This document shows, one piece after another, positions 2,260 to 33,776 of a stretch of 64,000 nucleotides of DNA. The translations under genes and the position numbers were made by a program. The DNA comes from a candidate division TA06 bacterium (GTDB taxonomy: Bacteria; Hydrothermota; DG-26; E44-bin18), in the NCBI GenBank assembly GCA_004376575.1, contig SOJN01000148.1, positions 2 through 64,001 of the forward strand. Direction: 5' to 3'. Each line of letters begins with the position of its first letter. The first letter of the stretch is position 1. Below the pieces are notes generated by a model. The model saw only the letters and a list, made by a program, of their open reading frames with translations. It did no database searches and was not told the DNA's origin.

Positions 2260-2261
2260 GT

Positions 2262-7772: not shown

Positions 7773-8912
7773 ATGTCACTTGATTGGCTGCCCAGGGACG
7801 ATGAAGTGAAGAACCACGCGCTTTGGGGCAAAGAACATTTCGGCACAGAGCCCCCCTGCGTGATTTATGAAAAGAGACCTGTCATAGATTCAGATGGAAA
7901 TGAAGTCAAAGGGCTCTATTCTGCATGGGTCATTCTGAACAATCCTAAACAGTACAACTCATACACTACTGAAATGGTCAAGGGAGTGATAGCAGGTTTC
8001 CAAAACGCCTCACTCGATAGGAGCGTTGTCTCTGTGGTCTTCACCGCCGTGGGTGATAGAGCATTCTGCACTGGCGGAAACACCAAAGAGTATGCTGAAT
8101 ACTACAGCAAACGGCCCAATGAATACGGGGAGTACATGGACCTGTTCAACCAGATGGTGGATGCTATCCTCATGTGCAAGAAGCCTACCATATGCCGGGT
8201 GAATGGGATGAGAATTGCTGGTGGCCAGGAGATAGGAATGGCCTGTGACATAGCCATTGCGGCTGACACTGCAACCTTCGGGCAGGCGGGACCGAGACAT
8301 GGGTCTGCCCCTGACGGGGGCTCAAGCGACTTCCTTCCGTGGTACTTGAGCATAGAAGACGCACTGTGGAACTGCGTATCATGCGAGATATGGAGTGCGT
8401 ACAAGATGAAAAGGCTTGGTCTCATTACCAGAGTGGTCCCTGTCATAAAGGACGGAGAAAAGTGGATAAGAAACCCGATGGTAATCACAGGCAAATACGT
8501 GGAGGACGGGGAAATCGTTTATGGAGAGCTGGTTAAAGGAGAAGAACTGAAGAAAGCAAAGGAATTCTTGAAGGGAGGCAAGAAAGATTTTGGACTCCTG
8601 GACGCGGCAGTTAATGAAGTCATCTGGAAATTTGTCAACCTGATGCCTGGATGTCTGATAAAATCAATAGATGGTGTCCGAATGAAGAAGAAATTCTTCT
8701 GGGACGTGGCCAAACTGGCAAACAGACACTGGCTTGCAGCAAACATGTCCACGGAAGCGTTCCTTGGTTTCCACGCGTTCAATACTAAGAAGATAACCGG
8801 CAAAGACGTGATTGACTTTGTGAAGTATCGTCAGTTGATTGCCGAGGGACACGTGTTCGATGATTCACTTGCTGAGGAGGTATTCGGGAAGCCGAAACCA
8901 GAAGCTGAGTGA
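7773..8912 (+). CDS. bamA: 6-oxocyclohex-1-ene-1-carbonyl-CoA hydrolase (ring-cleaving crotonase-family hydrolase, BamA/Oah)
   Basis: 379 aa, crotonase fold. Contains QYNSYTT and GQEIGMA, the peptide motifs encoded by the bamA functional-marker primer sites. Length matches BamA/Oah (~380 aa). Confidence 0.85.
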   Translation: MSLDWLPRDDEVKNHALWGKEHFGTEPPCVIYEKRPVIDSDGNEVKGLYSAWVILNNPKQYNSYTTEMVKGVIAGFQNASLDRSVVSVVFTAVGDRAFCTGGNTKEYAEYYSKRPNEYGEYMDLFNQMVDAILMCKKPTICRVNGMRIAGGQEIGMACDIAIAADTATFGQAGPRHGSAPDGGSSDFLPWYLSIEDALWNCVSCEIWSAYKMKRLGLITRVVPVIKDGEKWIRNPMVITGKYVEDGEIVYGELVKGEELKKAKEFLKGGKKDFGLLDAAVNEVIWKFVNLMPGCLIKSIDGVRMKKKFFWDVAKLANRHWLAANMSTEAFLGFHAFNTKKITGKDVIDFVKYRQLIAEGHVFDDSLAEEVFGKPKPEAE

Positions 8913-8974
8913 GAACGACTCTCACAAAACCTTCATCCAAACAACCCCAGATTGGGAAAGGAGTAATCGAGGAA

Positions 8975-10219
8975 ATGAAGAAAAAGGAAATCTTCTGGAT
9001 TCCCAAGAAAATCGACGGCGGCGGTCCCGCCCTCATGAAGAAGATGAAGAAGAAGATTGTCTTTCTTTCCGCCACGCGCACACCCTTTGGAGAGGTGAAT
9101 GGCTCCCTGAAGACGTTCACTCCTATTGAGCTGGGGGCGCTGGCAGCGAGAAGCGCCATTGAAAAAGCGGGACTGAAGGGACGTGAACATCTGATAGATG
9201 AATCAATCTTCGGGAACGCCCAACACACAAGCATCGACTCGCACTACGGTGGAAGACACGTTGCCCTCCGCGCGGGTCTACCTTATGATAAGCCCGGACT
9301 CACGGTCAATCGGATATGTTTCTCAGGCGGAGAGGCTGTCATACAGGGTGCAAAACAGATTATTCTTGGCGAAGCAGAAATCGTTCTTGCTGGGGGGTAT
9401 GAAAGCAGCAGTCAGGCACCCAGTCTGCAATATGGCGCCTCACTGGGCTTCCCGTACATGGCCGGGGCAAGAGTATACCACTTGTTCAAAGACGGTCTTC
9501 AGGATACATACATTAACATGGATATGATGGCGACTGCTGAGAGATTAGCAAAGCTGTATGGCGTGACGCGAAAAGATGCTGATGAATTCGCCTACTCTTC
9601 CCAGATGAAAGCGAAGGACGCAATAGAGAAAGGGAGACTGGCCAAAGAGATAACGCCCGTGGTCATAAAGACCAGGAGGGGCGAGCATGTCGTCTCAGAA
9701 GATGGACACACAAGGCCCGAAGTCACGCTCAAAACACTCGCCGGGCTCAGGAATGTGAAGCCCGGGGGAATTCAGACTGCCGGCAACTCAAGCGGAATCG
9801 TTGATGGCGGCGCTGCCATAATAGTTGCCTCGAGTGAAAAGGCAAAGAAACTGGGGCTCCAACCGATAGGCGAGATTATCTCCTGGGGGACTGCGGCTGT
9901 TGATCCATATTACATGGGTATCGGTCCGGTGCCATCAAGCACAATTGCTCTGAAACGTGCAGGCATGACCTGGAAGAATATTGACCATATAGAGATCAAT
10001 GAGGCATTTGCCGGCCAGTATCTGGCCGTAGAGCGTGAACTGAAATTGGACAGAGGCAAGGTGAACCTGAATGGCGGTGCGATTGCACTTGGCCATCCGC
10101 TTGGAGCAACCGGCACCAGACTCATTACTGCACTTATAACACTTGGGGGCGTCGGCCTGGCATCTGCATGCATAGGTGGCGGCCAGGGCGGAGCAATGAT
10201 TCTGAAAAGTTACCTCTAG
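8975..10219 (+). CDS. Acetyl-CoA C-acyltransferase (thiolase)
   Basis: Thiolase motifs NRICFSGGEAV, NEAFAGQYLAV, GGAIALGHPLGATG, GGGQGGAMIL. The Lys-rich N-terminus makes the start ambiguous (ATG 8975 with AAGGAG upstream; the homolog-consistent start is ATG 9044, MKKKIVFLSATRTPFG). Confidence 0.8.
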   Translation: MKKKEIFWIPKKIDGGGPALMKKMKKKIVFLSATRTPFGEVNGSLKTFTPIELGALAARSAIEKAGLKGREHLIDESIFGNAQHTSIDSHYGGRHVALRAGLPYDKPGLTVNRICFSGGEAVIQGAKQIILGEAEIVLAGGYESSSQAPSLQYGASLGFPYMAGARVYHLFKDGLQDTYINMDMMATAERLAKLYGVTRKDADEFAYSSQMKAKDAIEKGRLAKEITPVVIKTRRGEHVVSEDGHTRPEVTLKTLAGLRNVKPGGIQTAGNSSGIVDGGAAIIVASSEKAKKLGLQPIGEIISWGTAAVDPYYMGIGPVPSSTIALKRAGMTWKNIDHIEINEAFAGQYLAVERELKLDRGKVNLNGGAIALGHPLGATGTRLITALITLGGVGLASACIGGGQGGAMILKSYL

Positions 10220-10225
10220 CGCCCG

Positions 10226-12586: not shown

Positions 12587-12597
12587 GGGGGAAAATC

Positions 12598-13344
12598 ATG
12601 AAGGACCTGAAGGGGAAATCAGCTATTGTCACAGGTGGTAGCTTGGGTATAGGGACTGCGATAGCGCTGGATCTTGCGGCCAATGGTGTTAATATCGCTA
12701 TCAACTACAGAAAGCACGCAGACGAAGCCAACGCCGTAGTCGAAAAGGCAAAAGGGATGGGTGTGAAGGCGTTGGCCGTGAAGGCCGATGTATCCAATTT
12801 TCAGGATGCTCAGAACATGGTTGACACGGTCGTCAAGGAGTTCGGGTCGCTGGACATACTGATCAACAATGCAGGAGTCAACTGGGATGGTGTCATCTGG
12901 AAGATGAGCGAAGAACAATGGGATACAGTGATAGGTATCGACCTGAAAGGTTGCTTCAACTACATAAGAGCAGTCTCCCCCATATTCAGGGAGCAGAAGC
13001 ACGGGAAGATCGTCAACATAACCTCCATAAATGCGCTGAGGGGCAAGTTCGGGCAGAGCAATTATTCGGCTGCCAAGGCAGGTGTCATTGGCCTGACAAA
13101 GACAGCTGCAAAGGAACTCGGCAAATACAGCATCAATGTCAACTCCGTAGCTCCAGGACTGATAGAGACAGAGATGATAAAGAAGATGCCAGATGATGCG
13201 AAACAGGTGTCCATCAATGAAACGACTTTCAAAAGGCTGGGCACGCCGGAGGATGTAGCTCACGTGGTCGCATTTCTGTGCAGCGACCTTTCCAGGCACG
13301 TGACTGGCGAAGTCATAAAAGTAGACGGCGGGCAATATATCTGA
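12598..13344 (+). CDS. Short-chain dehydrogenase/reductase (FabG/BadH-like 3-oxo/hydroxyacyl reductase)
   Basis: 248 aa. TGGSLGIGTAIA cofactor motif and YSAAK catalytic motif. Classical SDR. Confidence 0.85.
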   Translation: MKDLKGKSAIVTGGSLGIGTAIALDLAANGVNIAINYRKHADEANAVVEKAKGMGVKALAVKADVSNFQDAQNMVDTVVKEFGSLDILINNAGVNWDGVIWKMSEEQWDTVIGIDLKGCFNYIRAVSPIFREQKHGKIVNITSINALRGKFGQSNYSAAKAGVIGLTKTAAKELGKYSINVNSVAPGLIETEMIKKMPDDAKQVSINETTFKRLGTPEDVAHVVAFLCSDLSRHVTGEVIKVDGGQYI

Positions 13345-13351
13345 AAAACAG

Positions 13352-14557
13352 ATGTGCAGGAGGATAGCAATGGAACTGAGGGACGTAGTAATAGTGAGCG
13401 CTTGTAGAGCTCCGATGGGAAGGTTCGGAGGGACTTTGAAGAATATGGCTGCCTACGACGTAGGAGCTGTGGCGGTGAAGGAAGCACTCAAGAGAGCAAA
13501 GCTGAAGGGCGAACAGGTGGACGACGTCTTGCTCGGCTCTTGCAGACAAGCAGGAAATGGACCCAACCCTGCAAGAACTGCCGCGGTCAGAGGTGGAGTC
13601 CCCGCACAGGTACCTGTGATGACACTCAACATGGCGTGTCCCTCGGGCATGAGAGCGCTCGCGCAGGCCAGCCAGGCAATAAGGCTGGGAGACGCGAGCA
13701 CAATCCTTGTCGGTGGATTTGACTCTATGAGCACCATCCCCTATCTTCTGAAAGACGTGAGGTGGGCCGGGTTCAAGATGGGTGACAAAACACTTCTCGA
13801 TGGTTGGGCAGACTCTATAGATCCCCTCTGCGGGTTCGGAATGGGGATGACCGCGGAAAACGTTGCTGAGAAATACAAGATCACACGCGAAGAGCAGGAC
13901 AAGTTTGCCTATGAAAGCCATATGAAGGCGGCGAAAGCGCAGGACGAGGGATGGTTTAATGAAGAGATCGTGTCAATCGAGGTTCCTCAGAGAAAGGGTG
14001 ATCCCATCATCTTCGATAAGGACGAAACGATCAGGCGCGATACTTCGCTGGAGAAACTGGCCAAGCTTCGTGCTGTGTTCAAGAAGGACGGGTGCGTCAC
14101 TGCCGGGAATGCGTGCGCAATGTCAGACGGTGCGGCAGCTATGATTGTTATGTCGCGGCCGAAAGCAAAGGAACTTGGTCTCAAGCCGCTCTTTTCGATC
14201 GTTTCCTATGCGCAGACTGCTGTGGAACCAGAAACCATGGGAGAAGGGCCGGGGTTTGTCATCCCTATGGCACTCGAGCGGGCAGGGATGGAGCTAGGAG
14301 ACATGGATCTCATAGAGGTGAACGAAGCCTTTGCCGTTCAGATTCTGGCCAATGAAAAGAAACTCAACTGGGACCGCACCAAGCTGAACGTTCATGGTGG
14401 AGCGATAGCCCTTGGTCACCCGACTGGGATAAGTGGTGCACGGATCATTGTTACTCTATATCATGCGCTGAAGCAGAGAAACAAGGAGCACGGCATCGCG
14501 GCAATCTGCGGAGGCGGCGGCGTCACCATGGCCACTGTGATCCGCAGAGAAAACTGA
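13352..14557 (+). CDS. Acetyl-CoA acetyltransferase (thiolase II)
   Basis: 401 aa. VVIVSACRAPMGRFGG N-terminus, NEAFAVQ, GGAIALGHPTGISG, CGGGGVTMA. Confidence 0.9.
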   Translation: MCRRIAMELRDVVIVSACRAPMGRFGGTLKNMAAYDVGAVAVKEALKRAKLKGEQVDDVLLGSCRQAGNGPNPARTAAVRGGVPAQVPVMTLNMACPSGMRALAQASQAIRLGDASTILVGGFDSMSTIPYLLKDVRWAGFKMGDKTLLDGWADSIDPLCGFGMGMTAENVAEKYKITREEQDKFAYESHMKAAKAQDEGWFNEEIVSIEVPQRKGDPIIFDKDETIRRDTSLEKLAKLRAVFKKDGCVTAGNACAMSDGAAAMIVMSRPKAKELGLKPLFSIVSYAQTAVEPETMGEGPGFVIPMALERAGMELGDMDLIEVNEAFAVQILANEKKLNWDRTKLNVHGGAIALGHPTGISGARIIVTLYHALKQRNKEHGIAAICGGGGVTMATVIRREN

Positions 14558-20637: not shown

Positions 20638-20666
20638 TTGACAGACTTCGCGAAGTAGCCTATATT
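20638..20666 (+). promoter_or_regulatory. Sigma70-like promoter TTGACA-17-TATATT; the spacer holds the perfect palindrome CTTCGCGAAG, and direct repeats TGGTTACCG x2 lie downstream
   Basis: Consensus hexamers with 17-nt spacing about 170 nt upstream of the regulator gene. The 10-bp palindrome overlaps the spacer. Tandem GGTTACCG repeats are at 20691-20715. Confidence 0.35.
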
Positions 20667-20837
20667 TTGTATGAGAGTTTATGGTTACCGATATTGGTTA
20701 CCGGGAAGCCCAAGACCCTGAAACCACGAGATTACACGAGATTAACACAGAGAAACCTTTATCCTAGGAACAAAACCAGAATATGAGAAATCTTGTAGTA
20801 ATCTGTGAAATCTGTGGTTTCAGATTGTGGGGTTGAG

Positions 20838-21506
20838 ATGACTGAAAACGACGTAGAGGCCAAGATATTTGGGGTTCTGCAGAAGTCTGCTGAGGGGTTG
20901 CAGAGTGAGGAGATCGCCGCCAATCTGGGTCTCACCCGCCACACTGTTGCCAAATACCTTGAGGTCCTCAGAGCCAAGAACAAAATCCACTACAGAAAGG
21001 TGGGCAGAACGAAGCTCTGGAAGACCCTCTTCGCAGACATCCACATCCGCTCGCTTGAAAAAGGCGACGTAGACACGATACTTGAAATAATGTCGAACAT
21101 CGGTCGTCCGACAGCAGGAGAAGAAGAAGAATCTCTATCATACTTAAGAGAGACGGTGGAGCGTCACATAGAGAGAAATGAACCCTTGATGAACCTTGGC
21201 GCAGAGCTTGACAAGAGACTGGTCGGCTTCGTCATGGGTGAGATAAGGGCGTGGGAATTCGGCCAAAGGGAGAAGACGGGCTGGATAAAGGTTCTTGGTG
21301 TTGATCCAGACTATCAGGGAATGGGAGCCGGGAGGAAGCTTGGAGAGGCACTCCTTTCCAACTTCAAAGCGAGCGGAGTAGCCAGGGTCAGGACGCTGGT
21401 TAACTGGTACGAAGGTGACCTTCTCTCCTACTTCAGGACTCTCGGTTTCAACACGCTGAACATCATACCGCTTGAAACAAAGGTCACCACGAGGGATCGA
21501 ATATGA
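20838..21506 (+). CDS. Winged-helix (MarR/ArsR-like) DNA-binding domain fused to a GNAT acetyltransferase domain; candidate regulator of the adjacent bzd operon
   Basis: N-terminal ...QSEEIAANLGLTRHTVAKYLEVLRAKNKIHYRKVGRTKLWK resembles a wHTH. C-terminal GNAT-like region. Start chosen at MTENDV (20838). Confidence 0.55.
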   Translation: MTENDVEAKIFGVLQKSAEGLQSEEIAANLGLTRHTVAKYLEVLRAKNKIHYRKVGRTKLWKTLFADIHIRSLEKGDVDTILEIMSNIGRPTAGEEEESLSYLRETVERHIERNEPLMNLGAELDKRLVGFVMGEIRAWEFGQREKTGWIKVLGVDPDYQGMGAGRKLGEALLSNFKASGVARVRTLVNWYEGDLLSYFRTLGFNTLNIIPLETKVTTRDRI

Positions 21507-21694: not shown

Positions 21695-22825
21695 ATGAAG
21701 ATGAAGGAGATGTTCAAGGAGTTTTACGAAGCCAGGCATGAGTACGCCAAGGAATGGAAGAAGAAGAACCGCGGCAAAGTAATGGGTTATTTCTGTACAT
21801 ACGTGCCAGAGGAGATGCTTTACGCCGCGGGAGTTCTTCCGGTCCGAATTCTGGGAAGCCATGAACCCCAGGACCTGACCGAACCTCACATCTTTGGGAT
21901 GTTCTGCCCGTTTTGCAGAGACTGTCTGGCTCAGGGTTTGAAGGGAAGGTTCGACTACCTGGATGGTATAATGATAGCTCAGTCCTGCCTGCACGTGAGG
22001 CAGGCCTACACTTCGTGGGACCTTCACATACCTACAGAGTACTCATACTATCTCTCCACACCTCATCACGTTCAGTCTCCTCGGGCTATCCCCTACCTGG
22101 CAGGTGAACTGGAGGATTTCAAAAAGTCACTCGAAGGGTGGCTGGGCAAGAAGATAACTGATGCGAACCTTGACAAAGGTATCCAAATCATGAACACAAA
22201 CAGATCGCTCCTGCGAGAACTATACGAGCTCAGAAAACAGGAAGCGCCGCCTCTCACAGGGCTCGATGCGATGTATGCTGTTGTTTCAGGCCAGATGATA
22301 GACAAGGTTGAACACAACCGCATACTTGAGGACACATTGAAGAGTCTAAAGAACAAACAGCCTGAAAGGCCAACAGGAAGCAGACTGATGCTAATAGGCA
22401 GCGAAGATGACGATACAGGCTTTATAGAGATGGTGGAATCCCTGGGAGCCACTTTTGTAATAGATGACCACTGCACTGGTTCGCGCTATATCTGGGAAGA
22501 CGTAAAACCTAACGGAGACAGATTGACTGCAATAGCAGAAAGATACGTCAAACGAGTACCATGCCCCACAAAAGATTGGCCGCTGAGAAACCGCCTTCCT
22601 CACATTCTCAAACTTGCAAAGGAGTACAAGGTGGAAGGTGCAGTCATCGCTCAACAGAAGTTCTGTGACCCGCACGAACTGGACATACCCGCAATCAAAA
22701 AGCTGCTCGAAGAGAATAGCATACCCACCTTATTCCTTGAGTTGGATGTGACTGTTCCCATTGGACAGTTCAAAGTCCGGGTTGAAGCATTCCTGGAGAT
22801 GCTGAGCGAAGAAGATCTATTCTGA
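21695..22825 (+). CDS. bzdN: Benzoyl-CoA reductase (class I, Bzd-type) gamma subunit, BcrC/BadD/BzdN-like (HgdA/B family)
   Basis: 376 aa, HgdAB/BcrBC family (…[21 protein letters not shown]…). First gene of the 4-gene set gamma-beta-delta-alpha followed by ferredoxin, as in the bzdNOPQM order. Confidence 0.7.
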
Positions 22826-22835: not shown

Positions 22836-24143
22836 ATGGCGAAGTATGAAACTGAACGGCTGAAGTGCTGGAACAAGGCGAAAGAGTTGAGAAAGAATTT
22901 CTACGAAGATTACGCGAAAGCCCATGAAAAGGGTGGCATAAGATGGGCTGGAGGTGCGTGGTCCATAGGTTCGATTCCGGCCGGACTGGGAAGAGACGTC
23001 TACCCGATCACTTCTGAGCCGTACGCTGCCAGCATTGCATTTGACAGACCCTTCTCAGAAGAATGCCTCGCGGCGATCGAAAAAGAAGGGTATGCCAGGG
23101 ACCTGTGTTCATACATGCGCAACTACTGGGGAAGTGTTTTGTTGAACAAGTACGCCTTTGGCGGAGAGTTTCCCACTCCTGACTTCATCTGGCAGGATCA
23201 TATATGCTGCAGCCACGCAAAATGGTACCAGGTGGTGAAGGACATAGAAGAAAAGGACATACCCTACTTCTGCCTTGATGTGGCTGTTGGTCCTTACAGC
23301 GAGTTGAATGAGAACAAATTGAACTATGTCGTGGGCCAACTGCACGACGCCATCGAATGGATGGAGAAGCTGACAGGCCGGAACTACCAAGACGAACTGC
23401 TCATAGAGGCGGTCAATGATGAGTGCAGATCAACATCTGTCTGGGCTGAGGTGTGCGCGCTGAACAAGGCAATACCAGCACCTCTCGATGAGAAATCCAT
23501 GTATTCGCTTTATGTCCTGGGCACTCTCAAAAAGCACTCCAAGGATATTGCAGACTTCTACGAGGAGTTGAGAGATGAGGTGAAGGACAGAGTTGACCGG
23601 GGTATTGCCGCTGTTGGAAATGAACGGTGCCGGGTGATGACTGACACTCAGCCTCCCTGGGGATTCTTGAAGATATTTAGATATATGGAAAAGTTCGGTT
23701 GCATCTCTGTCGGTTCTCTCTACACCTTTGGCCTCATCGGAATGTGGGAAGACAAACCTGACGGGACGTGGGGGCCCAAGACGACCCCGCAGCAAAAGGG
23801 GATTGAAATCAAGGACAGGGATGAGGCCTTGAGAATCATTGCTGAGTGGAATCTGTCTAAGCCAGAGTGGCAGCACTTCTATCATCCAAAGCACAAGACC
23901 GACATGATGGTGAGAATCGCCAAAGAGTGGAAGCTGGACGGGGTGATGCTTCACTACAACAGGGGATGCGAGGGATTGAGCATTGGGATAGCAGAGAACA
24001 GACTTGGCATACAGGAAGCTGGATTCCCTGTCATGACCTTCGAAGGAAACATGGGAGATGAAAGAGAGTTCGATGAGGCGAAAACCGTGGGTAGAATCGA
24101 CACATTCATGGAAAGTCTCGGATTCAGCAAGGATGAAGAGTAG
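22836..24143 (+). CDS. bzdO: Benzoyl-CoA reductase beta subunit, BcrB/BadE/BzdO-like
   Basis: 435 aa, HgdAB/BcrBC family (…[19 protein letters not shown]…[13 protein letters not shown]…). Size matches BcrB/BzdO. Confidence 0.7.
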
Positions 24144-24149: not shown

Positions 24150-24929
24150 ATGATGGTGACAGCAGGAATAGACGTAGGCGCGAAGAGCGTGAAAGTGGTA
24201 TTACTTGAGAGTGGCAAGGTGACGTCCAGGAGTCTCAAAACAATTGGCCTCAACACTGAGGCGGCCATTAACGAAGCCTTTGAAAGCGCCCTCTCCAACA
24301 ACGGAATCAAACGTGAAGAGATCTCAAAGATCATAGCCACAGGCGCGGGCAGAAAAGAGGTGAAGTTTGCCGACGGAGAATTGACAGAAGTCGGTGCCTC
24401 GGCAAAAGGTGCCCACCATCTCCTCGACTCGGCCCGCACTGTGATAGACATTGGAGCTGAGGAAGGTCGGGCCATAAAGGTAAACGAAAAAGGTAAGGTG
24501 GCTGACTTCGCCATAAACGAGAAATGTGCCGCGGGCGCAGGCGCCTTCACTGAAGCGATGTCAAGAGCTCTGGAGGTTGACCTGGAAGACTTCGGAAAGC
24601 TCTCGCTGAAGTCCCAGAAGGCCATTCCCATGAACGCACAGTGTGCTGTGTTTGCAGAAAGCGAAGTCGTTTCTCTTATCCACGCCAAGACCCGCAAAGA
24701 GGACATAGCCCGGGCAGTCCACGATGCGATAGCAGACAGGATAGTTTCTATGGCAAGACGTGTCGGTATCGCAAAGGACGTTATCGTGGTAGGAGGAGTT
24801 GCAAGAAACATTGGTTTCATAGATTCACTGAAACGCACTCTCGAGACTGACGTGGTTGTGCCAGAATACCCTGAGTACGCAGCAGCACTTGGAACCGCCC
24901 TACATGCGGCAGAAACCGGAGGTCAATAA
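24150..24929 (+). CDS. bzdP: Benzoyl-CoA reductase ATPase subunit (delta, BcrD/BadG/BzdP-like; activase-family)
   Basis: 259 aa. GIDVGAKSVK N-terminus and KCAAGAGAF motif. ASKHA ATPase of the HgdC family. Confidence 0.75.
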   Translation: MMVTAGIDVGAKSVKVVLLESGKVTSRSLKTIGLNTEAAINEAFESALSNNGIKREEISKIIATGAGRKEVKFADGELTEVGASAKGAHHLLDSARTVIDIGAEEGRAIKVNEKGKVADFAINEKCAAGAGAFTEAMSRALEVDLEDFGKLSLKSQKAIPMNAQCAVFAESEVVSLIHAKTRKEDIARAVHDAIADRIVSMARRVGIAKDVIVVGGVARNIGFIDSLKRTLETDVVVPEYPEYAAALGTALHAAETGGQ

Positions 24930-25810
24930 TGTCGCAGGATTTCTGGAGATGGACTGAATACAGAAAGACTATGCCTGATGTTGACTGGAAGAAGGCTCAA
25001 ATCCTGACGGCAGGTGTCGATGTGGGATCGGTTAGCTCTCAGGCGGTCGTCATGGCGGACGGGAAGCTCTTCGCGTACAGCAACATGAGGACAGGTTCAG
25101 ACAGTCCGGAGTCTGCTCAAAAAGCGATGGACTGGGCCCTTGAAGAGACAGGACTCACCCTGGATAAAATTCAGTTCACTGTGGGTACAGGATACGGCAG
25201 GGTGAACGTCCCCTTCGCCAATAGGGCGATTACTGAGATTGCATGCCACGCAAGGGGAGCAAACTATTTGTACGGCTCTTCAGTCCGGACTGTTCTCGAC
25301 ATGGGCGGTCAGGACTGCAAGGCGATTCGCTGCGATGAGAGAGGCAAGGTGACAAACTTTCTCATGAACGACAAGTGTGCCGCGGGAACCGGCCGCGGCA
25401 TGGAAGTTTTTGCTGAGCTCCTGCAGGTACCCATAACCGAGATCGGTCAGATGTCTCTGGACATAGACGAAGAACCAGAGCCGGTATCATCGACATGCGT
25501 CGTATTTGCTAAATCTGAGGCGACGGGTCTGCTGAGGGAAGGATGGCCCAAGAACAAGGTGATAGCAGCTTACTGTTCAGCAATGGCTCACCGGATTGTC
25601 ACGCTCCTGGAGAGAATCGGGATTGAAAAGGATTTCGCCATTACCGGTGGCATCGCAAAAAATCCAGGTGTGGTGACACGGTTAAACAAGGAACTGGGCA
25701 TCGAACCACTCAAGACCGAATATGACACGCAAACCGCAGGGGCCATCGGCGGCGCCCTTTTTGGATACGCACTGGTGAAGAAAGGCAAAGCAAAGGCAGG
25801 TGCGAGTTGA
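24929..25810 (+). CDS. bzdQ: Benzoyl-CoA reductase ATPase subunit (alpha, BcrA/BadF/BzdQ-like)
   Basis: 293 aa. GVDVGSVSSQ, IACHARG, KCAAGTGRG motifs. The second, non-identical activase-type ATPase implies a heterodimeric ATPase module as in BCR, not a homodimeric dehydratase activator. Confidence 0.75.
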   Translation: MSQDFWRWTEYRKTMPDVDWKKAQILTAGVDVGSVSSQAVVMADGKLFAYSNMRTGSDSPESAQKAMDWALEETGLTLDKIQFTVGTGYGRVNVPFANRAITEIACHARGANYLYGSSVRTVLDMGGQDCKAIRCDERGKVTNFLMNDKCAAGTGRGMEVFAELLQVPITEIGQMSLDIDEEPEPVSSTCVVFAKSEATGLLREGWPKNKVIAAYCSAMAHRIVTLLERIGIEKDFAITGGIAKNPGVVTRLNKELGIEPLKTEYDTQTAGAIGGALFGYALVKKGKAKAGAS

Positions 25811-26094
25811 TAGCAAACTACGGGTACATGGACGGCAGCGGCCAGTACTTCATAAAGATAGACTCAGACAAGTGCGATGGATGTGGAGACTGTGTGACCG
25901 CGTGCCCGGCTGGGGTCCTTGAGGTGGGTGAAGATGAGAACGACCCATTCCGTGAGGAGCCTGTGGTCAAAGTCACTGAGGATCAACGAAAGAAGATCAA
26001 ATACTCATGCGGGCCCTGTAAGCCTGTTGCCAACAGACCTCCTCTCCCCTGTATGGCAGCCTGCAAGCCCGGAGCGATCGAACACTCCTGGTAA
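25807..26094 (+). CDS. bzdM: 2x[4Fe-4S] ferredoxin, Alvin-like with extended second-cluster loop (BCR electron donor, BzdM/Fdx-like)
   Basis: 95 aa. Cluster 1 CDGCGDCVTACP. Cluster 2 CGPC-x10-C-x3-CKP. TTG start overlaps the bzdQ stop. Confidence 0.75.
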   Translation: MIANYGYMDGSGQYFIKIDSDKCDGCGDCVTACPAGVLEVGEDENDPFREEPVVKVTEDQRKKIKYSCGPCKPVANRPPLPCMAACKPGAIEHSW

Positions 26095-26109: not shown

Positions 26110-28605
26110 TTGAAACTGGTCATAGACGGTCAGACCGTAGAGGCTAGACCGGAAAGCACAATTCTTGAAGCAGCTCTAGAGACACAGATATATATCCCTG
26201 CCATCTGTTACCATCCGGATTTGCCGACATTCTCAAAGGCTGAACCCTCGGGGGGGATATTTGGGGGAGTTGAGAAAATCACTTCAGAAGAAAATGCAAA
26301 ATACCAAGGGTGCGGTCTTTGCATTGTTGAGGTGGATTGGAGAAGTGGTCCAGTCCTTTCATGTGAAACAGAAGCAGAAGACGGTATGGTCATCAAAACA
26401 AATACAGAGAAGATCAAGGACAAGAGACAGGAAGCTCTGGCCAGGATACTCAAAGACCACCCAAGAGCCTGTCTCCTCTGCACTCAAAAAGAAGGTTGTT
26501 CCAGGGAACCCTGTTCAGAGGACGTCCCTATGGAAGAGAGGTGCTGTCCATTACTGGGCAAGTGTGAGCTCGAGAAGATCGCAGACTTCGTCGGAGTCCC
26601 CCAGAACCCGGGCAAGTATAAGTCTCTGAGAATCCCGTTGCTGGACGACGAGCCGTTGTTCAAGCGAGATTACAACCTCTGCATTGGCTGCATGAGGTGT
26701 GTCCGCGCATGCAAGGACCTGAGAGGCGTTGAAGCGCTTGGATATGTAATCAAAAACGGCACCACATACCTGGGCACCATCAATGGATCGAAGCTCAAGG
26801 ACGCCGGGTGCAGGTTCTGCGGAGCCTGCGTTGAAGTGTGTCCCACAGGTGCACTGACCGACATCAAGCCTTTCACCCTTTCCGAGAAAGAGAAAGTTCT
26901 TGTCCCCTGCAGGGACGCTTGTCCGGCAGGAATAGACGTACCGGCGTATGTCCGGGCAATAGGCAGAGGCGAAACGGACAGAGCCCTCTCGATTATTTAC
27001 GAAAGCGCTCCTCTTCCAGGAATTCTGGGCATGGTTTGCCACCATCCATGCGAAGATGTCTGCAGGAGGAAAGAGATAGAAGAACCCATCTCCATATGCG
27101 GCATCAAACGATTTGCTGCAGAAAATGGAAAGCTGACGCACGCCTCTCCCCTGCTTCCCTCTACCGGCAAAAAGGTCGCGGTGATAGGTTCTGGTCCAGC
27201 AGGGCTCAGTACTGCCCATTTCCTGAAGCTGAAAGGCCATCAAGTTACTGTTTTCGAAAGAGAAGAGAAACCAGGAGGAATCCTAAGATACGGCATTCCC
27301 GCGTACAGGCTGCCTGATGCAGTCCTGGACAGCGAGATATCAACTGTGCTGGACGGAATTGAATTGAAGACTGAAGCTGCTCTTGGTCAAGATTTCCAGC
27401 TGAAGGACCTGGCAGACGAGGGATTTGACTGCGTGTTTCTCTGCACCGGAGCCGGAGAGAGTAAGAAACTTGAGATACCGGGCTCAGACAGTGAAGGTGT
27501 ATATTGGGGCCTTGACTTCTTGAAGGAGATTAACAAGGGTGACAAACCAGCTCTCGGCGAGAACGTCGCGGTCATAGGCGGAGGAAATGTCGCCTTTGAC
27601 GTTGCGCTGTGCTGCCTCAGGCTGGGAGTTCGACAGGTGACCGTCGTCTGCCTGGAGTGTAAATCTGAGATGCCCGCTTTCAATAAAGAGATAGATACTG
27701 CCAAAGAGGAAGCGGTCAGAATAATGAACTCCTGGGGACCAAAAGAGATAGAGTGCGCGGATGGCAAAGTCAAAGGAGTCTTCCTGAAGAAATGCACAGA
27801 GGTGTTCGACAAGAAAGGGAACTTCTCTCCTCAATACGACGAATCAGTCGTGGAACACATCGATGCTGACAATGTGATTCTTTCCATAGGCCAGGAGCCA
27901 GATGTGGATCTCATCTCTCTCCCTGGCATGCCAGAACACGATTCTTCAAGACTCCTTAGAGCAGAAGATACGAGAACAAACATCCCTACAGTGTTCGCTG
28001 GCGGGGATGCCACAAGAGGTCCTTCATCGGTAATTGAGGCTGTTGCAGACGGTAGGAAGGCCGCCGACGAAATCGACAGATTCCTGGGAGGCAGGGGCCC
28101 CGTTCGTACTTCCGGGCCTCAGCCCGCGAACCCTGAGATTGGTCGGGACGAACAGTTCTGTGAGCGTCTCAGAGTGGCAATGCCATGCGCTGATCCGTAC
28201 GAGAGAGGAAAATCGTTCACCCCCATAGAACTTGGATATGGTGAGAAAGAGGCAGGCATCGAAGCAAACCGTTGCCTTCAATGCGACCTGAGACTACAGA
28301 TTACTGAAGCTACTCTTCCTCCTGAGAAGTGGATACTTCTTGATCGTGAAGCTTTGAATGAAATCCCTGAAAAGGAAGGCGTGTACCAGCTGGCAGGCGA
28401 GAAGAAGATGGTGACAAAGATAGCCGGAACTCAGAATCTTCTACAATCACTCACGGCCGAACTGGACAGTGAAAATGGGAAGTACTTCTGGTTTGAGGAG
28501 GACCCGATGTACACGAAACGCGAAAGTGAGCTCATACAACAACATCTCCAGAAGTACGGTGAACTGCCAGGAGCAGGTGAAGAAGACCTGGATGACCTCT
28601 TCTAG
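26110..28605 (+). CDS. Multi-cluster iron-sulfur flavoprotein: NuoG-type 2Fe-2S/His-Cys3 4Fe-4S N-terminus + 2x[4Fe-4S] ferredoxin domain + GltD/SudA-type NAD(P)H:FAD oxidoreductase + C-terminal extension; candidate NAD(P)H:ferredoxin oxidoreductase for BCR
   Basis: 831 aa. HPRACLLCTQKEGC (H-x3-C-x2-C-x5-C). CIGCMRCVRAC and CRFCGACVEVCP. GltD-like C-x3-CP...VCHHPCEDVCRR. Dinucleotide folds KKVAVIGSGPAGL and VAVIGGGNVAFD. C-terminal ~170 aa includes an extra CLQC pair. Confidence 0.7.
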   Translation: MKLVIDGQTVEARPESTILEAALETQIYIPAICYHPDLPTFSKAEPSGGIFGGVEKITSEENAKYQGCGLCIVEVDWRSGPVLSCETEAEDGMVIKTNTEKIKDKRQEALARILKDHPRACLLCTQKEGCSREPCSEDVPMEERCCPLLGKCELEKIADFVGVPQNPGKYKSLRIPLLDDEPLFKRDYNLCIGCMRCVRACKDLRGVEALGYVIKNGTTYLGTINGSKLKDAGCRFCGACVEVCPTGALTDIKPFTLSEKEKVLVPCRDACPAGIDVPAYVRAIGRGETDRALSIIYESAPLPGILGMVCHHPCEDVCRRKEIEEPISICGIKRFAAENGKLTHASPLLPSTGKKVAVIGSGPAGLSTAHFLKLKGHQVTVFEREEKPGGILRYGIPAYRLPDAVLDSEISTVLDGIELKTEAALGQDFQLKDLADEGFDCVFLCTGAGESKKLEIPGSDSEGVYWGLDFLKEINKGDKPALGENVAVIGGGNVAFDVALCCLRLGVRQVTVVCLECKSEMPAFNKEIDTAKEEAVRIMNSWGPKEIECADGKVKGVFLKKCTEVFDKKGNFSPQYDESVVEHIDADNVILSIGQEPDVDLISLPGMPEHDSSRLLRAEDTRTNIPTVFAGGDATRGPSSVIEAVADGRKAADEIDRFLGGRGPVRTSGPQPANPEIGRDEQFCERLRVAMPCADPYERGKSFTPIELGYGEKEAGIEANRCLQCDLRLQITEATLPPEKWILLDREALNEIPEKEGVYQLAGEKKMVTKIAGTQNLLQSLTAELDSENGKYFWFEEDPMYTKRESELIQQHLQKYGELPGAGEEDLDDLF

Positions 28606-28615: not shown

Positions 28616-29770
28616 ATGCATCGTATTGAGAAACTGCAAAAGACCCTGGCCGACCACAGTCTAGTTGCGGCGTTTCTTCTTTACCACCGTGACGTTTACT
28701 ACTATGCAGGTACTGCAAGACCAGCGTCTCTTGTTGTGACTCCGGATGATGCAGTCTTGTTCGTCAGAAGGGGAGTTGATTGGCTCGGCGACGAACCGAA
28801 ACTGAGTGATGTCCGTGAGGGAGGCTTAGGTTCAATCCTTGATTGGCTGAAGGCCAAAGGTATACAGACGGGTAACGCAGGAATCGAGATGGATATCGTA
28901 CCTGCAGACATGTACGTGAAGCTGAAGATGCTCCTCCCCGGTTTGGAGTTTGTGGATGTTTCCACGTTCATAATCGAGCAAAGGCTCATTAAAGACAAGG
29001 ATGAGATAAAATCAATAAGGGGAGCATGCCGAATGGTCGAACAATCACACAAACACCTTCCCGATATCCTGAAAGAAGGGATTACTGAGCTTGAACTCTC
29101 AGCAGAGCTCGAATCGGTAGCTCGCAGGCACGGCCACGAAACCTTCGCAGTACTCAGGAAGAGGTTGGAGACGGAGATGGGCTACGCACTCATTCTCTCT
29201 GGTGAAAGCACCAGAGCGATCGGTGGTTATGGACAGGTCGTAACAGGAAAAGGGTTGAGTCCTGCTTTTCCGTATGGCCCTTCGCTTAGAAAGGTGAAAC
29301 GAGGGGATGTGGTCGTGTTTGACATCGCAGGCCTGAGCCAGGGATACCACTCAGATCTGGCAAGAACCTACTGTCTGGGGAAAGCGTCTGATGAGATGCT
29401 GGAAGCCCATGCAGCACTTGTTGCCATCCAGTCGGCAATGCTGGACGCTGCAAAGCCCGGGGTACCGGCAAATCAGATATACAAAACTGCAATCAAGAAA
29501 GCAGAAGCAATGGGTTGGGCCGATTACTTTCAGGGACACGGTAAAGAGAAAGGGACTTTTGTCGGGCATGGACTGGGTCTTGAGATAGACGAGCCGCCGC
29601 TTCTGAGCCCCAAAGATGGAACTGTGATCGAAGAAAACATGACATTCACCACAGAGCTGTTCATCGTGCATCCTGAGTTTGGCGAGGTTAAGCTGGAGGA
29701 CACTCTGCTCATGACGAAAGACGGGCCGGAACTTTTGACGACATTGGAACGGACAATAACTGAAATATGA
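28616..29770 (+). CDS. M24-family metallopeptidase (Xaa-Pro aminopeptidase/creatinase-like)
   Basis: 384 aa. Pita-bread fold motifs HGLGLEIDEPP, ...NMTFTTE.... Start is 11 nt after the upstream stop, so it is likely co-transcribed with the bzd operon. Confidence 0.8.
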   Translation: MHRIEKLQKTLADHSLVAAFLLYHRDVYYYAGTARPASLVVTPDDAVLFVRRGVDWLGDEPKLSDVREGGLGSILDWLKAKGIQTGNAGIEMDIVPADMYVKLKMLLPGLEFVDVSTFIIEQRLIKDKDEIKSIRGACRMVEQSHKHLPDILKEGITELELSAELESVARRHGHETFAVLRKRLETEMGYALILSGESTRAIGGYGQVVTGKGLSPAFPYGPSLRKVKRGDVVVFDIAGLSQGYHSDLARTYCLGKASDEMLEAHAALVAIQSAMLDAAKPGVPANQIYKTAIKKAEAMGWADYFQGHGKEKGTFVGHGLGLEIDEPPLLSPKDGTVIEENMTFTTELFIVHPEFGEVKLEDTLLMTKDGPELLTTLERTITEI

Positions 29771-30465: not shown

Positions 30466-31995
30466 ATGAGAAAACTGCCAGAAAACGAATATGTAGCCTT
30501 GACGACTCTCAGCCGACTGGAAAGGCCAGCACCTTTTGACAGCCTGGTTGCTCAGTCTGGTATGGACCAATCCAAACTAATGGCCGCTGCCATATCCCTC
30601 AAGGAGCAGGACCTTATAGTAATCCAGGAGGAGGCAGGAACTCTCATTTCCCTTGCTGACAATGGGAAGATATATGCTGAGCAACTCTTCCCGGAGAGGA
30701 GAGCCCTGAAAGCCATCCAGGATGCCGGAGGAAAGGTGAAGATCTCTACTCTCGCCCAACTCATAGATATACCGGATCTCGATTCCAGAAGAATCGTAAA
30801 GTGGCTTTCCCAGAAGGGCTGGTGTGCAAAAGAAGAGGACAACCTCGTAGTAACGGACAAGGGAAAGCAAGCAGCCAAAAAAAAGGGCCAGGACGAAATG
30901 CTTGTTGATGTGCTTTCCCAGAAAGGCACTGCTGACATCAAGTCCTTGAAGGAGAATGGCATTGATGTTGAGGCCGCCCAGCGACTTCTCAAAGGAAGAA
31001 CCCGAATCGTTAAGGTAAGATCGAAGAAGCTGAGACTTGTGAACCTCACAGAGAAAGGCAAGAAACTAGTATCGGAAGGGATCGAACCGGAAAAGCAAGC
31101 TACCACACTTACCTATGAGATGCTGGCAACAGGCAAGTGGCGCGAAGTCAGTTTGAAAAGCTATGACGTGAGTCTCCCAGGTGCTGTCACCTACCCTGGC
31201 AAAAGCCATCCTTTGAGAAGAATCATAGACGAGGCCCGCCAGGTCTTCCTGGAGATGGGTTTCACCGAGATAGTCTCGCCTTACGTGGACTCTTCCTTCT
31301 GGGTATTTGACGCACTCTTCCAACCCCAGGATCACCCCGCAAGGGAGATGCAGGACACGTTTTACATGTCCGCTCCCAGGCGATCGAAGCTTCCTCCGAA
31401 GAAGTTTGTCGAACCGGTTAAAGCCACTCACCAGAACGGCGGAAAAACTGGGAGCACAGGCTGGGGGTACAAGTGGGACATAGAAAAAGCAAGGAGAAAC
31501 GTACTCAGGACACACACCACAGCAACGACCATCAGATACCTGGCAGCACATCCTGAGCCGCCCCAGAAGGTTTTCAACATCGGCAGGAATTTCAGAAGAG
31601 AGAAGATCACTTTCAAGCATCTCATAGAGTTCTACCAGGTGGATGGAATAGTGATCGACGAAAAGGCGAGTCTGTCCACTTTGCTTGGGACCCTGGCTGA
31701 ATTCTATAAGAAAATCGGATTCCCAAAAGTCGTGTTCAGGCCGTCGTTCTTCCCTTACACAGAACCGAGCGTTGAGGCCTTTGCCTGGCTTGAAGCCAAA
31801 GATGCCTGGATCGAACTTGGAGGAGCTGGCATCTTCAGAGCCGAGGTTACCCGACCTCTTAACTGCCACGTCCCCGTTCTGGCCTGGGGTCTGAGTATTG
31901 AAAGAATCGCCATGATGAGATTTGGCCTGAGTGACATAAGGAAATTGTACTGGTCCGACATAGACTGGTTGAGGGAGGCGGAGCTATGCCGGTAA
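30466..31995 (+). CDS. pheS: Phenylalanine--tRNA ligase alpha subunit, archaeal/eukaryal type
   Basis: 509 aa (bacterial PheS is ~340). Signature HPL...MGFTEI...FWVFDALFQPQDHPARE...DTFY of archaeal/eukaryotic cytosolic PheRS-alpha. Class II motifs FRREKITF and GAGIFRAEV. Confidence 0.85.
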   Translation: MRKLPENEYVALTTLSRLERPAPFDSLVAQSGMDQSKLMAAAISLKEQDLIVIQEEAGTLISLADNGKIYAEQLFPERRALKAIQDAGGKVKISTLAQLIDIPDLDSRRIVKWLSQKGWCAKEEDNLVVTDKGKQAAKKKGQDEMLVDVLSQKGTADIKSLKENGIDVEAAQRLLKGRTRIVKVRSKKLRLVNLTEKGKKLVSEGIEPEKQATTLTYEMLATGKWREVSLKSYDVSLPGAVTYPGKSHPLRRIIDEARQVFLEMGFTEIVSPYVDSSFWVFDALFQPQDHPAREMQDTFYMSAPRRSKLPPKKFVEPVKATHQNGGKTGSTGWGYKWDIEKARRNVLRTHTTATTIRYLAAHPEPPQKVFNIGRNFRREKITFKHLIEFYQVDGIVIDEKASLSTLLGTLAEFYKKIGFPKVVFRPSFFPYTEPSVEAFAWLEAKDAWIELGGAGIFRAEVTRPLNCHVPVLAWGLSIERIAMMRFGLSDIRKLYWSDIDWLREAELCR

Positions 31996-33776
31996 TGGGA
32001 ATTCCGCTTGACGCCCTCTACAGGCTCGTTAAGAAAAAGATCGAGAAGAAAGAGCTGTTCGCTCTCCTCACCAGTCTGGGCTGTGATGTGGAGGGCTACT
32101 TCGAGGTCGAGCGATTCAAATGTACAAGATGCGGTGAGATAGTCGAACTCACATCCCAGGAAGACTCGCTAGGTGAATGCTCTTCCTGCGGTGTGGAGTT
32201 TGAGCCGGGGAAAACCATGCTCAGCATAGGTATGAGCGAAGTTGTCAGAATGGAGCTTCTACCAGCGAGGCCTGACATGTTCGACGTGGGCGGCCTGGCC
32301 AGAGCCATACGGGGATACCTGGGTCTTGAGGTTGGCATGCCGCGTTATCCGCTGCAGCCGTCGAACATGCTTGTCAAGGTGGCCAAATCAGTGAAGGGCG
32401 TAAGGCCCTGCATCGCCTGTGCTGTCGCCAGGGGAATGAAGCTCGACTACGAAACGATAAAGGCAGTTATGAAGATGCAGGAGAATCTCCACTGGGCCCT
32501 TGGCAGAGATAGAAGAAAAGCATCAATCGGAGTCTATGATCTCTCATCCCTGAGACCCAATTTTGTATACACAGCCTATGGCAAGAAAGAGATGAAGTTT
32601 GTGCCACTCGGGGGAATGCCCGGAGGCAGCACCGAGCCGACAACTCTGGAGAATATTCTTGAGCGCCATCCTAAGGGGATGGCATACAAACATCTCCTGG
32701 AAGACTATCAAGTCTACCCCATTCTCATTGACTCGGCAGACCAGGTTCTGTCCATGCCGCCCATTATCAACAGCGAGGAGACTAGAGCGGGAATTGAAAC
32801 AGAAGACCTGTTCGTAGATGTGACCGGTCACGACAGGACAAGCGTGGAAAGGACCCTCAATGTTTTTGTGTGTTCGCTCGCGGAATTGGGCGCCAGGATT
32901 GAAACCGTCAGAATCGCCGATACTACCGAAGAGCTGCGCACCCCCAATCTTGAATCAAGAGAGTCTATCCTGGTTTCCGAGCACGCCTCCTCTTTGATAG
33001 GAATCGATATTCCTCCTGACGATTGTGTCAGGCTTCTGAAGAAGATGCGATTTGATGCTTTCACGTCAGAAGAAAAGATACATGTGAGCATACCTCCCTT
33101 CAGGACTGACATCATGCACGAGTACGATCTGATAGAAGATATTGCTATTGCCTATGGCTATCACAACATAAAGCCTGCTCTCATTCCAACCATGACAATC
33201 GGCGCACAAAGGCCCCTGGAGAGAACTTCCGCACGGCTCAGAAACTGCATGCTGGGCCTCGGATTCTTGGAAGTGGTCACGACTCTGCTTTCTAATCCCC
33301 AGAAGAACTACGGTCTTTTGCAGAGAGAAGATGACAACAGGGCACCGAAGATAGAGAACCCCTCAACAGTTGAACATACAATTCTGAGGACCCACCTCAT
33401 CTCAGGTCTTCTGGAGATGTTCAAGATCAACAGAACCCGCAAGATGCCTCAGAAGACGTTCGAGCTTGGTGATGTTTCTCTCATAGAAGAAAAAGGAGAG
33501 ACCGGAACGGTTGATAAGAGAATTCTCGCCGGTGCAATCATGGATCCAAAGACTGGATTTTCAGAGATAAAATCGTGTGTCGCGGCTGTTATGAGAGAAA
33601 CAGGCAGAGATTTTGACCTGCGCCCTGAAAATGATCCTTCCTTTATCAAGGCCAGGTGTGCGGGAATATACCTGAAAGATTCGAAGATAGGAATATTGGG
33701 GGAGATTCACCCACAGGTTCTTGAGAACTTCGAAATAGTACAACCTGTCTCCCTTTTCCACATGGCAGCTGAGTAG
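31986..33776 (+). CDS. pheT: Phenylalanine--tRNA ligase beta subunit, archaeal/eukaryal type (with a Cys4 zinc-ribbon insert)
   Basis: 596 aa (bacterial PheT is ~800). Overlaps the pheS stop. B3/B4-like and B5 regions. CTRCGEIVEL...CSSCG zinc ribbon near the N-terminus. Confidence 0.8.
   Translation: MPVMGIPLDALYRLVKKKIEKKELFALLTSLGCDVEGYFEVERFKCTRCGEIVELTSQEDSLGECSSCGVEFEPGKTMLSIGMSEVVRMELLPARPDMFDVGGLARAIRGYLGLEVGMPRYPLQPSNMLVKVAKSVKGVRPCIACAVARGMKLDYETIKAVMKMQENLHWALGRDRRKASIGVYDLSSLRPNFVYTAYGKKEMKFVPLGGMPGGSTEPTTLENILERHPKGMAYKHLLEDYQVYPILIDSADQVLSMPPIINSEETRAGIETEDLFVDVTGHDRTSVERTLNVFVCSLAELGARIETVRIADTTEELRTPNLESRESILVSEHASSLIGIDIPPDDCVRLLKKMRFDAFTSEEKIHVSIPPFRTDIMHEYDLIEDIAIAYGYHNIKPALIPTMTIGAQRPLERTSARLRNCMLGLGFLEVVTTLLSNPQKNYGLLQREDDNRAPKIENPSTVEHTILRTHLISGLLEMFKINRTRKMPQKTFELGDVSLIEEKGETGTVDKRILAGAIMDPKTGFSEIKSCVAAVMRETGRDFDLRPENDPSFIKARCAGIYLKDSKIGILGEIHPQVLENFEIVQPVSLFHMAAE

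Follow-up and report, generated by a model that had tools for sequence, protein, structure and literature searches.

The established ferredoxin-regenerating system of a benzoyl-CoA reductase (BCR) is KorAB, the 2-oxoglutarate:ferredoxin oxidoreductase of Thauera aromatica, whose donor, 2-oxoglutarate, is thermodynamically competent (PMC6500515, PMC5736913). The same role, re-reduction of the BCR ferredoxin, is presumed for BzdV, which belongs to an unrelated family and is described in the Azoarcus bzd operon as a putative NADPH:ferredoxin oxidoreductase (PMC5658619, PMC6678401). BzdV has also been placed in the BCR ferredoxin-regenerating system of deep-sea Chloroflexi (PMC5736913), and bzdV has been described in one BCR cluster from Hermodarchaeota (PMC8163825). 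In N47, NaphS2 and TRIP_1 an oxidoreductase adjoins the class I tetrahydronaphthoyl-CoA (THNCoA) reductase and its ferredoxin (PMC6849830, PMC12016498), and the ferredoxin and oxidoreductase of the thn operon were proposed as carriers of NAD(P)H electrons (PMC12016498). Here, a gene at 26110..28605 (+) of a 64,000-nucleotide stretch of contig SOJN01000148.1 from a candidate division TA06 bacterium (the whole stretch is called the window) was found to encode an 831-amino acid Fe-S flavoprotein of the BzdV family. We judge it rather probable that this protein is the electron-input partner of a bzd-type, ATP-dependent BCR, passing electrons along a linear, non-bifurcating path to ferredoxin.

The gene was the final member of a bzdN-O-P-Q-ferredoxin-V cassette in which all genes were on the forward strand, with gaps or overlaps of 1–15 nucleotides. 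The cassette comprised:

21695..22825 (+): bzdN, an HGD-D-family BCR subunit (TIGR03190, 504 bits against a cutoff of 453.8; Pfam HGD-D)
22836..24143 (+): bzdO, a BCR subunit (TIGR03191, 697.8 bits against a cutoff of 448.6)
24150..24929 (+): bzdP-like ATPase/activase-type BCR subunit (TIGR00241, 232.6 bits; Pfam BcrAD_BadFG)
24929..25810 (+): bzdQ, a BCR ATPase subunit (TIGR03192, 437.6 bits against a cutoff of 380.2)
25807..26094 (+): bzdM-type 2x[4Fe-4S] ferredoxin of 95 amino acids, overlapping the bzdQ stop codon (Pfam Fer4 family matches)
26110..28605 (+): bzdV-family Fe-S flavoprotein of 831 amino acids (open reading frame, Pfam, homologs and structure model)

This arrangement resembled two described systems. 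BzdV of Azoarcus/Aromatoleum (bzdNOPQMSTUVWXYZA operon) and ThnG of naphthalene degraders (N47_E41430, thn operon) likewise lie 3' of a bzd-type reductase and ferredoxin, and for both the same NAD(P)H to ferredoxin to reductase role is presumed, being putative everywhere (PMC5658619, PMC6678401, PMC12016498, PMC6849830). In Azoarcus, S, T and U stand between M and V, whereas here and in most environmental genomes V directly follows M. The location immediately 3' of the bzdM-type BCR ferredoxin, reported in the initial annotation of the stretch, was confirmed, as was the 831-amino acid open reading frame with its Fe-S and flavin modules, which were recovered by Pfam and by orthologs of the same length (P0001 and P0002, 831 amino acids each, at 99% and 87% identity). 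The reading frame started with TTG, and AGAGGGG was located eight bases 5' of the start.

Homolog searches returned thousands of matches. These included a coherent set of ~830–870 residues that aligned over the full length with at least 46–50% identity and as much as 99%; its members came from Asgard archaea, Thermoplasmata, Nezhaarchaeales, Chloroflexi, Elusimicrobia, Acidobacteriota, Planctomycetota and others. One of them, a 'BzdV protein' from Heimdallarchaeota (P0107), had 47% identity at 100% coverage. Because full-length homologs are so named, and because the same gene stands beside Bzd-type reductases in published clusters (PMC6849830, PMC8163825, PMC5736913, PMC12016498), the 831-amino acid protein is a member of the named BzdV family and its architecture is not new. 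The initial annotation had contrasted the protein with a 'poorly characterised BzdV' and had taken the fusion to be a new NAD(P)H:ferredoxin oxidoreductase; genomic context favored the BCR-linked reductase, and the claim to novelty gave way to an existing hypothesis about an existing family.

Gene order was judged in homologs that carry the same C-terminal tail (described below) and had enough upstream sequence. The order HGD-D, HGD-D, BcrAD, BcrAD, ferredoxin, flavoprotein was found in loci L001, L002, L004, L006, L007, L011, L081, L082 and L084–L087, and a slightly interrupted version was found on a Promethearchaeota chromosome (L083). Of the homologs so judged, a single one, L003 (described below), departed from this order. 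The N-O-P-Q-ferredoxin-V order was represented in Thermoplasmata, Deltaproteobacteria, Pirellulaceae, Latescibacterota, Ignavibacteriales, Acidobacteriota, Chloroflexi, Elusimicrobia and Promethearchaeota. Overall, the cassette recurred in at least 12 other loci, both bacterial and archaeal, and in all cassettes an ortholog of the ferredoxin (93–95 amino acids) was encoded directly 5' of the flavoprotein gene. The initial annotation had asked whether the fusion sits beside bzd/bcr clusters in other genomes or whether its closest homologs are never linked to BCR; linkage was found across phyla.

Conservation of residues was scored in an alignment of 55 full-length homologs, and an AlphaFold2 model of the full-length protein had a predicted local distance difference test (pLDDT) score of 87.4, with residues 121–150 uncertain (~51–53). 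The protein contained the following modules, from the N-terminus to the C-terminus:

26110..26406 (+), residues 1–99: N-terminal [2Fe-2S] domain with C33, C68, C71 and C85 (Pfam Fer2_4, above cutoff)
26425..26589 (+), residues 106–160: NuoG-type His/Cys cluster region (weak NADH-G_4Fe-4S_3 match at residues 106–130, 20.8 against a cutoff of 27)
26653..26859 (+), residues 182–250: 2x[4Fe-4S] ferredoxin-like domain (Pfam Fer4_Nqo3, above cutoff, and Fer4_7)
26905..27126 (+), residues 266–339: main part of the GltD/NfnL-type cluster domain (Fer4_20, 61.6 bits, profile positions 31–107)
27169..28053 (+), residues 354–648: flavin adenine dinucleotide (FAD) and NAD(P)H Rossmann domains (Pyr_redox_2, 107 bits; structural matches to NfnA, StnC, NfnL, DPD and GltD)
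27649..27657 (+): C514-L515-E516, at the Y-R-R position of NADPH-dependent relatives (residue-by-residue structure alignments)
28204..28293 (+), residues 699–728: displaced N-terminal segment of the GltD cluster domain, with R721-C722-L-x-C725 (Fer4_20 positions 3–28)
28318..28569 (+), residues 737–820: DUF7508 (Pfam PF24348 at residues 740–813, 30.6 bits against a cutoff of 26; structure models; Foldseek)
28579..28602 (+), residues 824–831: acidic C-terminal peptide ending in LDDLF (conservation; pLDDT <50)

The motif cysteines named in the initial annotation were all invariant in the 55 homologs, so the module description is far beyond chance. Its inventory of clusters held for the motifs that it listed and had overlooked the [2Fe-2S] site of the first domain.

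Both CxxCxxCxxxC motifs of the 2x[4Fe-4S] domain (C191/194/197/201 and C234/237/240/244) were invariant in 55/55 homologs. In the His/Cys region, a His (H117) was accompanied by seven invariant Cys (C121, C124, C130, C135, C145, C146 and C152). A cluster with the pattern H-x3-C-x2-C-x5-C had been proposed here, and the literal pattern is present (H117/C121/C124/C130); alignment with canonical relatives assigned the canonical NuoG ligands instead to H117, C121, C146 and C152. Insertions in the N-terminal module were judged by aligning five tail-bearing (cassette-linked) members with five tail-less relatives. Tail-less relatives in general end near residue 740, and L009, L010, L014 and L027 adjoin NuoE-like and NuoF-like genes. 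A 22-residue insertion (window 26479–26544), shared with L027, split the His/Cys motif and added the invariant C124, C130, C135 and C145. As four added invariant Cys are ligands enough for one metal site, the insertion could possibly form an extra one. An additional 27-residue insertion in the [2Fe-2S] domain (residues 39–66, window 26224–26307) was present in 5/5 tail-bearing members and 0/5 tail-less relatives.

The cysteines of the GltD-type cluster domain (C267/C271, C310/C314/C318 and C722/C725) were invariant as well and were distributed over both sides of the flavin domain. In NfnB, the motif CLQC-x4-C-x3-CP is contiguous; here, the C-x3-CP half (C267, C271) precedes the flavin domain and the CLQC half follows it. 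Residues 701–726, including R721-C722-L-Q-C725, matched Fer4_20 profile positions 3–28 (E 0.0087), and the main Fer4_20 match lacked exactly those positions. The displaced segment also weakly matched residues 8–47 of NfnB/NfnL, and alignments to NfnA (9bov_A) and StnC (8oh5_C) reached through residues 726–728. Because the CLQC pair fills the missing piece of Fer4_20 and its placement is shared with NfnA and StnC, the two cysteines are most likely ordinary ligands of one of the two GltD-type clusters. The end of the protein had been thought to have no counterpart in GltD homologs; residues ~699–728 proved to be this displaced Fer4_20 piece and residues 737–820 a named Pfam domain, DUF7508.

The closest solved structures were NfnA of the Bfu-type NfnABC enzyme (9bov_A, E 3.6e-54; 9n5u_A) and StnC of StnABC (8oh5_C), the best matches in both sequence and structure, followed by NfnL, DPD and GltD. 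Foldseek also matched the core to 5jca_L, 4ylf_B and 6s6s_E. The protein had in common with NfnA and StnC an NfnL-like FAD and 2x[4Fe-4S] module, a CxxC pair after the flavin domain and NuoG-type clusters, all in one polypeptide. It differed from them in that the order of modules was reversed, with the NuoG-like part first; no NuoF/NuoE-like B and C subunits were encoded in the locus; C-L-E replaced Y-R-R; and no C-terminal Fdh/molybdopterin-like domain was found by Pfam, DUF7508 ending the protein instead. With NfnB/NfnL, SudA and the GltD small subunits, the Fer4_20 and Pyr_redox_2 core aligned over ~420–470 columns at 25–34% identity. Compared with these, the N-terminus was longer by ~260 residues, which carried three to four additional cluster sites, the start of the cluster domain was permuted, no NfnS/SudB/GltB partner gene was present and the residues at the 2'-phosphate site were different.

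At that site, the end of the beta-2 strand of the NADPH domain, Y-R-R was found in 9n5u_A, 9bov_A, 8oh5_C, 5jca_L and 4ylf_B. In the present protein the position was occupied by C514-L515-E516, and L515 and E516 were invariant in the bzdV family. Across 87 fetched loci, BCR-linked members carried [CS]LE with the sole exception of L005, and NuoEF-linked tail-less relatives carried YRR. In Rossmann folds, an acidic residue at this position classically indicates a preference for NAD(H). The replacement of YRR by CLE therefore suggests that NADH, not NADPH, is the donor of the bzdV-family protein, which fits the finding that the best donor for THNCoA reductase in N47 extracts was NADH (PMC12016498).

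On the reading that we prefer, the GltD/NfnL-like module would accept a hydride from NAD(P)H at its FAD. From there, electrons would pass one at a time to the two GltD-type [4Fe-4S] clusters, one of them probably completed by the displaced C722/C725, and through the 2x[4Fe-4S] domain to the NuoG-like N-terminus with its His/Cys and [2Fe-2S] sites. They would be received by the 95-amino acid ferredoxin encoded immediately 5', which in turn would reduce BzdNOPQ. DUF7508 and the acidic LDDLF peptide, both described below, may assist by docking the reductase on its partner. A linear path is the simplest reading because BzdV has an input module and a chain of clusters but no NuoF/NuoE-like core. 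Such a transfer would be simple, non-bifurcating and thermodynamically uphill, and would therefore have to be pulled by the irreversible, ATP-driven reduction of the ring, aided by mass action or close coupling.

Several observations weigh against this reading. With a potential of about -320 mV, NAD(P)H is ill suited to reduce a low-potential ferredoxin, so that a plain oxidoreductase would leave most of the ferredoxin oxidized. A tail-bearing homolog from Dehalococcoidia (L003, 8850–11360) adjoined FolD and formate-THF ligase (FTHFS) genes, with no BCR within 8.8 kb. A ferredoxin-linked homolog from Bacillota (L005, 473–3196) retained YRR. Additionally, CLE was common among the 87 loci in relatives without a BCR link; since it also occurs in these, the CLE form is a trait of the subfamily and is not specific to BCR. 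Orthology to the founding Azoarcus BzdV rests on names, literature and synteny: no Azoarcus/Aromatoleum entries were among the homologs listed, and a search of plasmids gave only a shorter paralog on an EbN1 plasmid. No biochemical characterization of any BzdV family member was found in the papers searched.

A different account has BzdV docking on BzdNOPQ and delivering electrons within a complex, with the ferredoxin as a bound relay or with direct transfer to the cluster of the ATPase module, and with DUF7508 and the acidic peptide as the interface. We regard this as unlikely, and the evidence that bears on it comes mainly from the tail. Both the full-length model and one built for residues 735–831 alone (pLDDT 76.5) showed residues 737–820 in a beta-beta-alpha-beta-alpha fold, with helices flanking a three-stranded sheet. 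Foldseek against the PDB placed UvrC GIY-YIG domains first (1yd6_C, E 5.6e-4, template modeling score 0.53–0.55; 1ycz and mutants), followed by a plant glutaredoxin through its N-terminal domain (2lwf), with Hpy188I as a weak match. Against the viral models of BFVD, the named matches were mostly GIY-YIG endonucleases of phage. The fold is thus that of the GIY-YIG nucleases (UvrC N-terminal domain, phage homing endonucleases and the AtGRXS16 N-terminal domain), from which DUF7508 differs in its degenerate catalytic Tyr/Tyr/Arg positions and in its fusion to a redox enzyme.

Pfam GIY-YIG did not match the tail, for which only DUF7508 and Fer4_20 were reported at E values up to 10. An hhalign comparison of the tail with Escherichia coli UvrC was weak (probability 22.6%) and served for the residue register only. 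In that register, among the 55 homologs, the GIY Tyr position (759) contained Y24/F19/I12, the YIG Tyr position (770) contained L16/K8/A8/Y7 and the helix-1 Arg position (780) contained A26/S10/D6/E5. The remnant pattern in the tail was G-V-[YFI] ... I-x-G ... E-x-x-L-[IL] ... P. Judging from the models, DUF7508 has a GIY-YIG-like fold with degenerate catalytic positions and presumably no nuclease activity. The loose resemblance to a GIY-YIG motif reported in the initial annotation therefore applies to the fold and extends neither to the catalytic residues nor to a Pfam match.

Invariant positions in the tail were G757, I771, G773, F793, a helix PMYTKRESEL[IL]QQ, P820 and the terminal [DE][DE]L[DE][DE]LF. 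L827, D828, D829, L830 and F831 were kept in 47–55 of the 55 homologs, and LDDLF was invariant in 12 C-terminal fragments. A search of 1.84 billion representative proteins with a profile of the tail gave 372 matches, and in the best 150 the domain was always at, or a few residues from, the C-terminal end of the protein. When 147 of these 150 were compared with the 831-amino acid protein, 25 were full length (>780 amino acids), 102 were shorter and colinear with its C-terminal part over >85% of their own length, and the remaining 20 resembled it through their C-terminal part only. No second architecture with DUF7508 was seen among the best 150 of the 372 matches, and DUF7508 is a signature of the bzdV family alone. 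When the tail by itself served as the query, the homologs found were all short fragments, including a 'BzdV protein, partial' with 78% identity in the tail (P0121). No mention of DUF7508 was found in the papers searched.

In the sampled loci DUF7508 was carried almost only by BCR-linked members. Given this near-constant company of BCR genes, its restriction to one family, the loss of nuclease residues, and an invariant charged helix and acidic C-terminal peptide that would suit a protein–protein interface, the best guess for DUF7508 is a protein-docking domain. Delivery within a complex is disfavored by the Dehalococcoidia homolog, which has the tail without a nearby BCR, and by the universal retention of the ferredoxin gene, which argues that ferredoxin is still needed. 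A more specific version also appears doubtful to us. In it, BzdV would be no free NADPH:ferredoxin oxidoreductase but an NADH-specific input module docked on the Bzd-type reductase or its ferredoxin through a domesticated and catalytically dead GIY-YIG domain and the invariant LDDLF tail, possibly with a seventh metal site formed by the Cys-rich insertion. If true, the docked BzdV would be a wired NADH-to-arene reduction machine.

The initial annotation had raised electron bifurcation or confurcation. Under this explanation, BzdV would be self-contained, its NfnL-like FAD splitting the electron pair of NAD(P)H so that one electron goes downhill to some high-potential acceptor while ferredoxin takes the other uphill. 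In favor of it, NfnL is a homolog of the flavin module, and its FAD bifurcates in NfnSL (PMC12018979). Some form of coupling would be favored by thermodynamics, and the Cys-rich site and the two family-specific insertions could form a branch. We nevertheless consider it quite improbable, and no positive evidence for it emerged. In NfnABC, the NfnL-like FAD takes a hydride from NADPH at the end of the chain and passes single electrons through the NfnA clusters; bifurcation takes place in the NuoF/NuoE-like BC core. The equivalent FAD of the nearest relatives with a solved structure is thus placed at the chain's end and is non-bifurcating (PMC11829005). No second flavin or nucleotide domain was found in the bzdV-family protein by Pfam, and the cassette contained no NfnS/SudB-like gene. 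By tblastn with NuoE and NuoF queries from L010 and L027, neither gene was found in the whole 64-kb window or in the tail-bearing loci examined, unlike the tail-less relatives, beside which the same queries found both.

In the tail-less relatives (L009, L010, L014, L027, L041 and others) the flavoprotein gene was grouped with a NuoE-like and a NuoF-like gene as a three-gene unit, and YRR was retained. These units look like minimal Bfu-type Nfn enzymes with an A subunit that lacks the Fdh-like domain. L027 also encoded a 1027-amino acid NuoF-GltD fusion.

It is hardly credible that the protein is a subunit of another enzyme unrelated to BCR (formate dehydrogenase beta, glutamate synthase small chain or Nfn-type transhydrogenase), as the source names of some homologs ('formate dehydrogenase beta subunit', a JGI label, and 'NADPH-dependent glutamate synthase beta subunit-like') and the top NCBIfam matches, PRK12814 and PRK12771, might imply, since those scores were far under the curated cutoffs (451 vs 916 and 436 vs 516), no formate dehydrogenase alpha, GltB or NfnS/SudB gene was adjacent (the neighbors being BCR subunits, the ferredoxin and an M24 peptidase-like gene) and the linkage to BCR was kept across many phyla. 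On these sub-cutoff scores and missing partner genes, all three identities were rejected.

Beyond the cassette, two further genes of the window were annotated as follows:

28616..29770 (+): M24/creatinase-like gene, 10 nucleotides 3' of bzdV (Pfam Creatinase_N and Peptidase_M24)
7773..8912 (+): Oah/BamA ring-cleaving hydrolase of the benzoyl-CoA pathway (TIGR03200, 578.1 bits against a cutoff of 464.45)

The M24/creatinase-like gene is probably co-transcribed with bzdV. Its position beside the cassette was kept only in the closest contigs (L081 and L082), and other phyla had no counterpart. The lower benzoyl-CoA block (4379–14557) contained two AMP-forming CoA ligases, Oah/BamA, two thiolases, a short-chain dehydrogenase/reductase and a hydroxyacyl-CoA dehydrogenase/enoyl-CoA hydratase fusion. 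A second HGD-D gene (245–1489) was followed by its own BcrAD/activase gene (1489–2259) and by an ADP-forming acyl-CoA synthetase (2262–4352). The block at 245–4352 forms a radical dehydratase or reductase-like system of its own, a partner subunit of which may lie before the start of the window. With Oah/BamA, the thiolases, the dehydrogenase/hydratase fusion, the CoA ligases and the second HGD-D/activase pair upstream, the window holds a genuine benzoyl-CoA degradation locus. No 2-oxoacid:ferredoxin oxidoreductase was found among the annotated open reading frames of the window.

A gene for a GNAT acetyltransferase (20638–21506) preceded bzdN. A scan for promoters and terminators across the window found a sole plausible promoter, a near-consensus sigma-70-like sequence (TTGACA-17-TATATT) 5' of the GNAT gene, and no convincing terminator; an Rfam scan of the window gave zero matches. 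GNAT genes also adjoined the bzdNOPQMV cassette in unrelated genomes, at L081 4930–5589 (with an HTH_11 domain), L087 1305–2066 and L084 9612–10076, and the GNAT protein may regulate the cassette.

The rest of the window contained diderm housekeeping genes (LptA, lipid A acyltransferase, KdsA/KdsD-like, CTP synthase, S1 and MurJ), and the syntenic contig L081 additionally encoded sigma-54 and HPr kinase. Archaeal-type phenylalanyl-tRNA synthetase alpha and beta subunits (30466–33776; PRK04172, TIGR00471) were encoded in this otherwise diderm bacterium. A 1639-amino acid open reading frame (58415–63334) with FG-GAP, Ig-like (HYDIN/VesB-like) and DUF1573 repeats is probably a large surface protein.

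Overall, electron supply to the bzd-type (Azoarcus-type) class I BCRs has been left at a 'putative NADPH:ferredoxin oxidoreductase BzdV' for two decades, and the window adds no new kind of enzyme. The six-gene N-O-P-Q-M-V cassette occurs very widely among uncultured bacteria and archaea, Asgard lineages among them. Features that merit further attention are the tail derived from GIY-YIG, the permutation of the cluster ligands, the Cys-rich insertion, the NADH-type motif and how cleanly BCR-linked relatives separate from those linked to NuoEF. For the family as a whole, the predictions are an NADH donor, no bifurcating partner, a docking-type domain that would derive from a nuclease fold and a possible extra Cys4 site.

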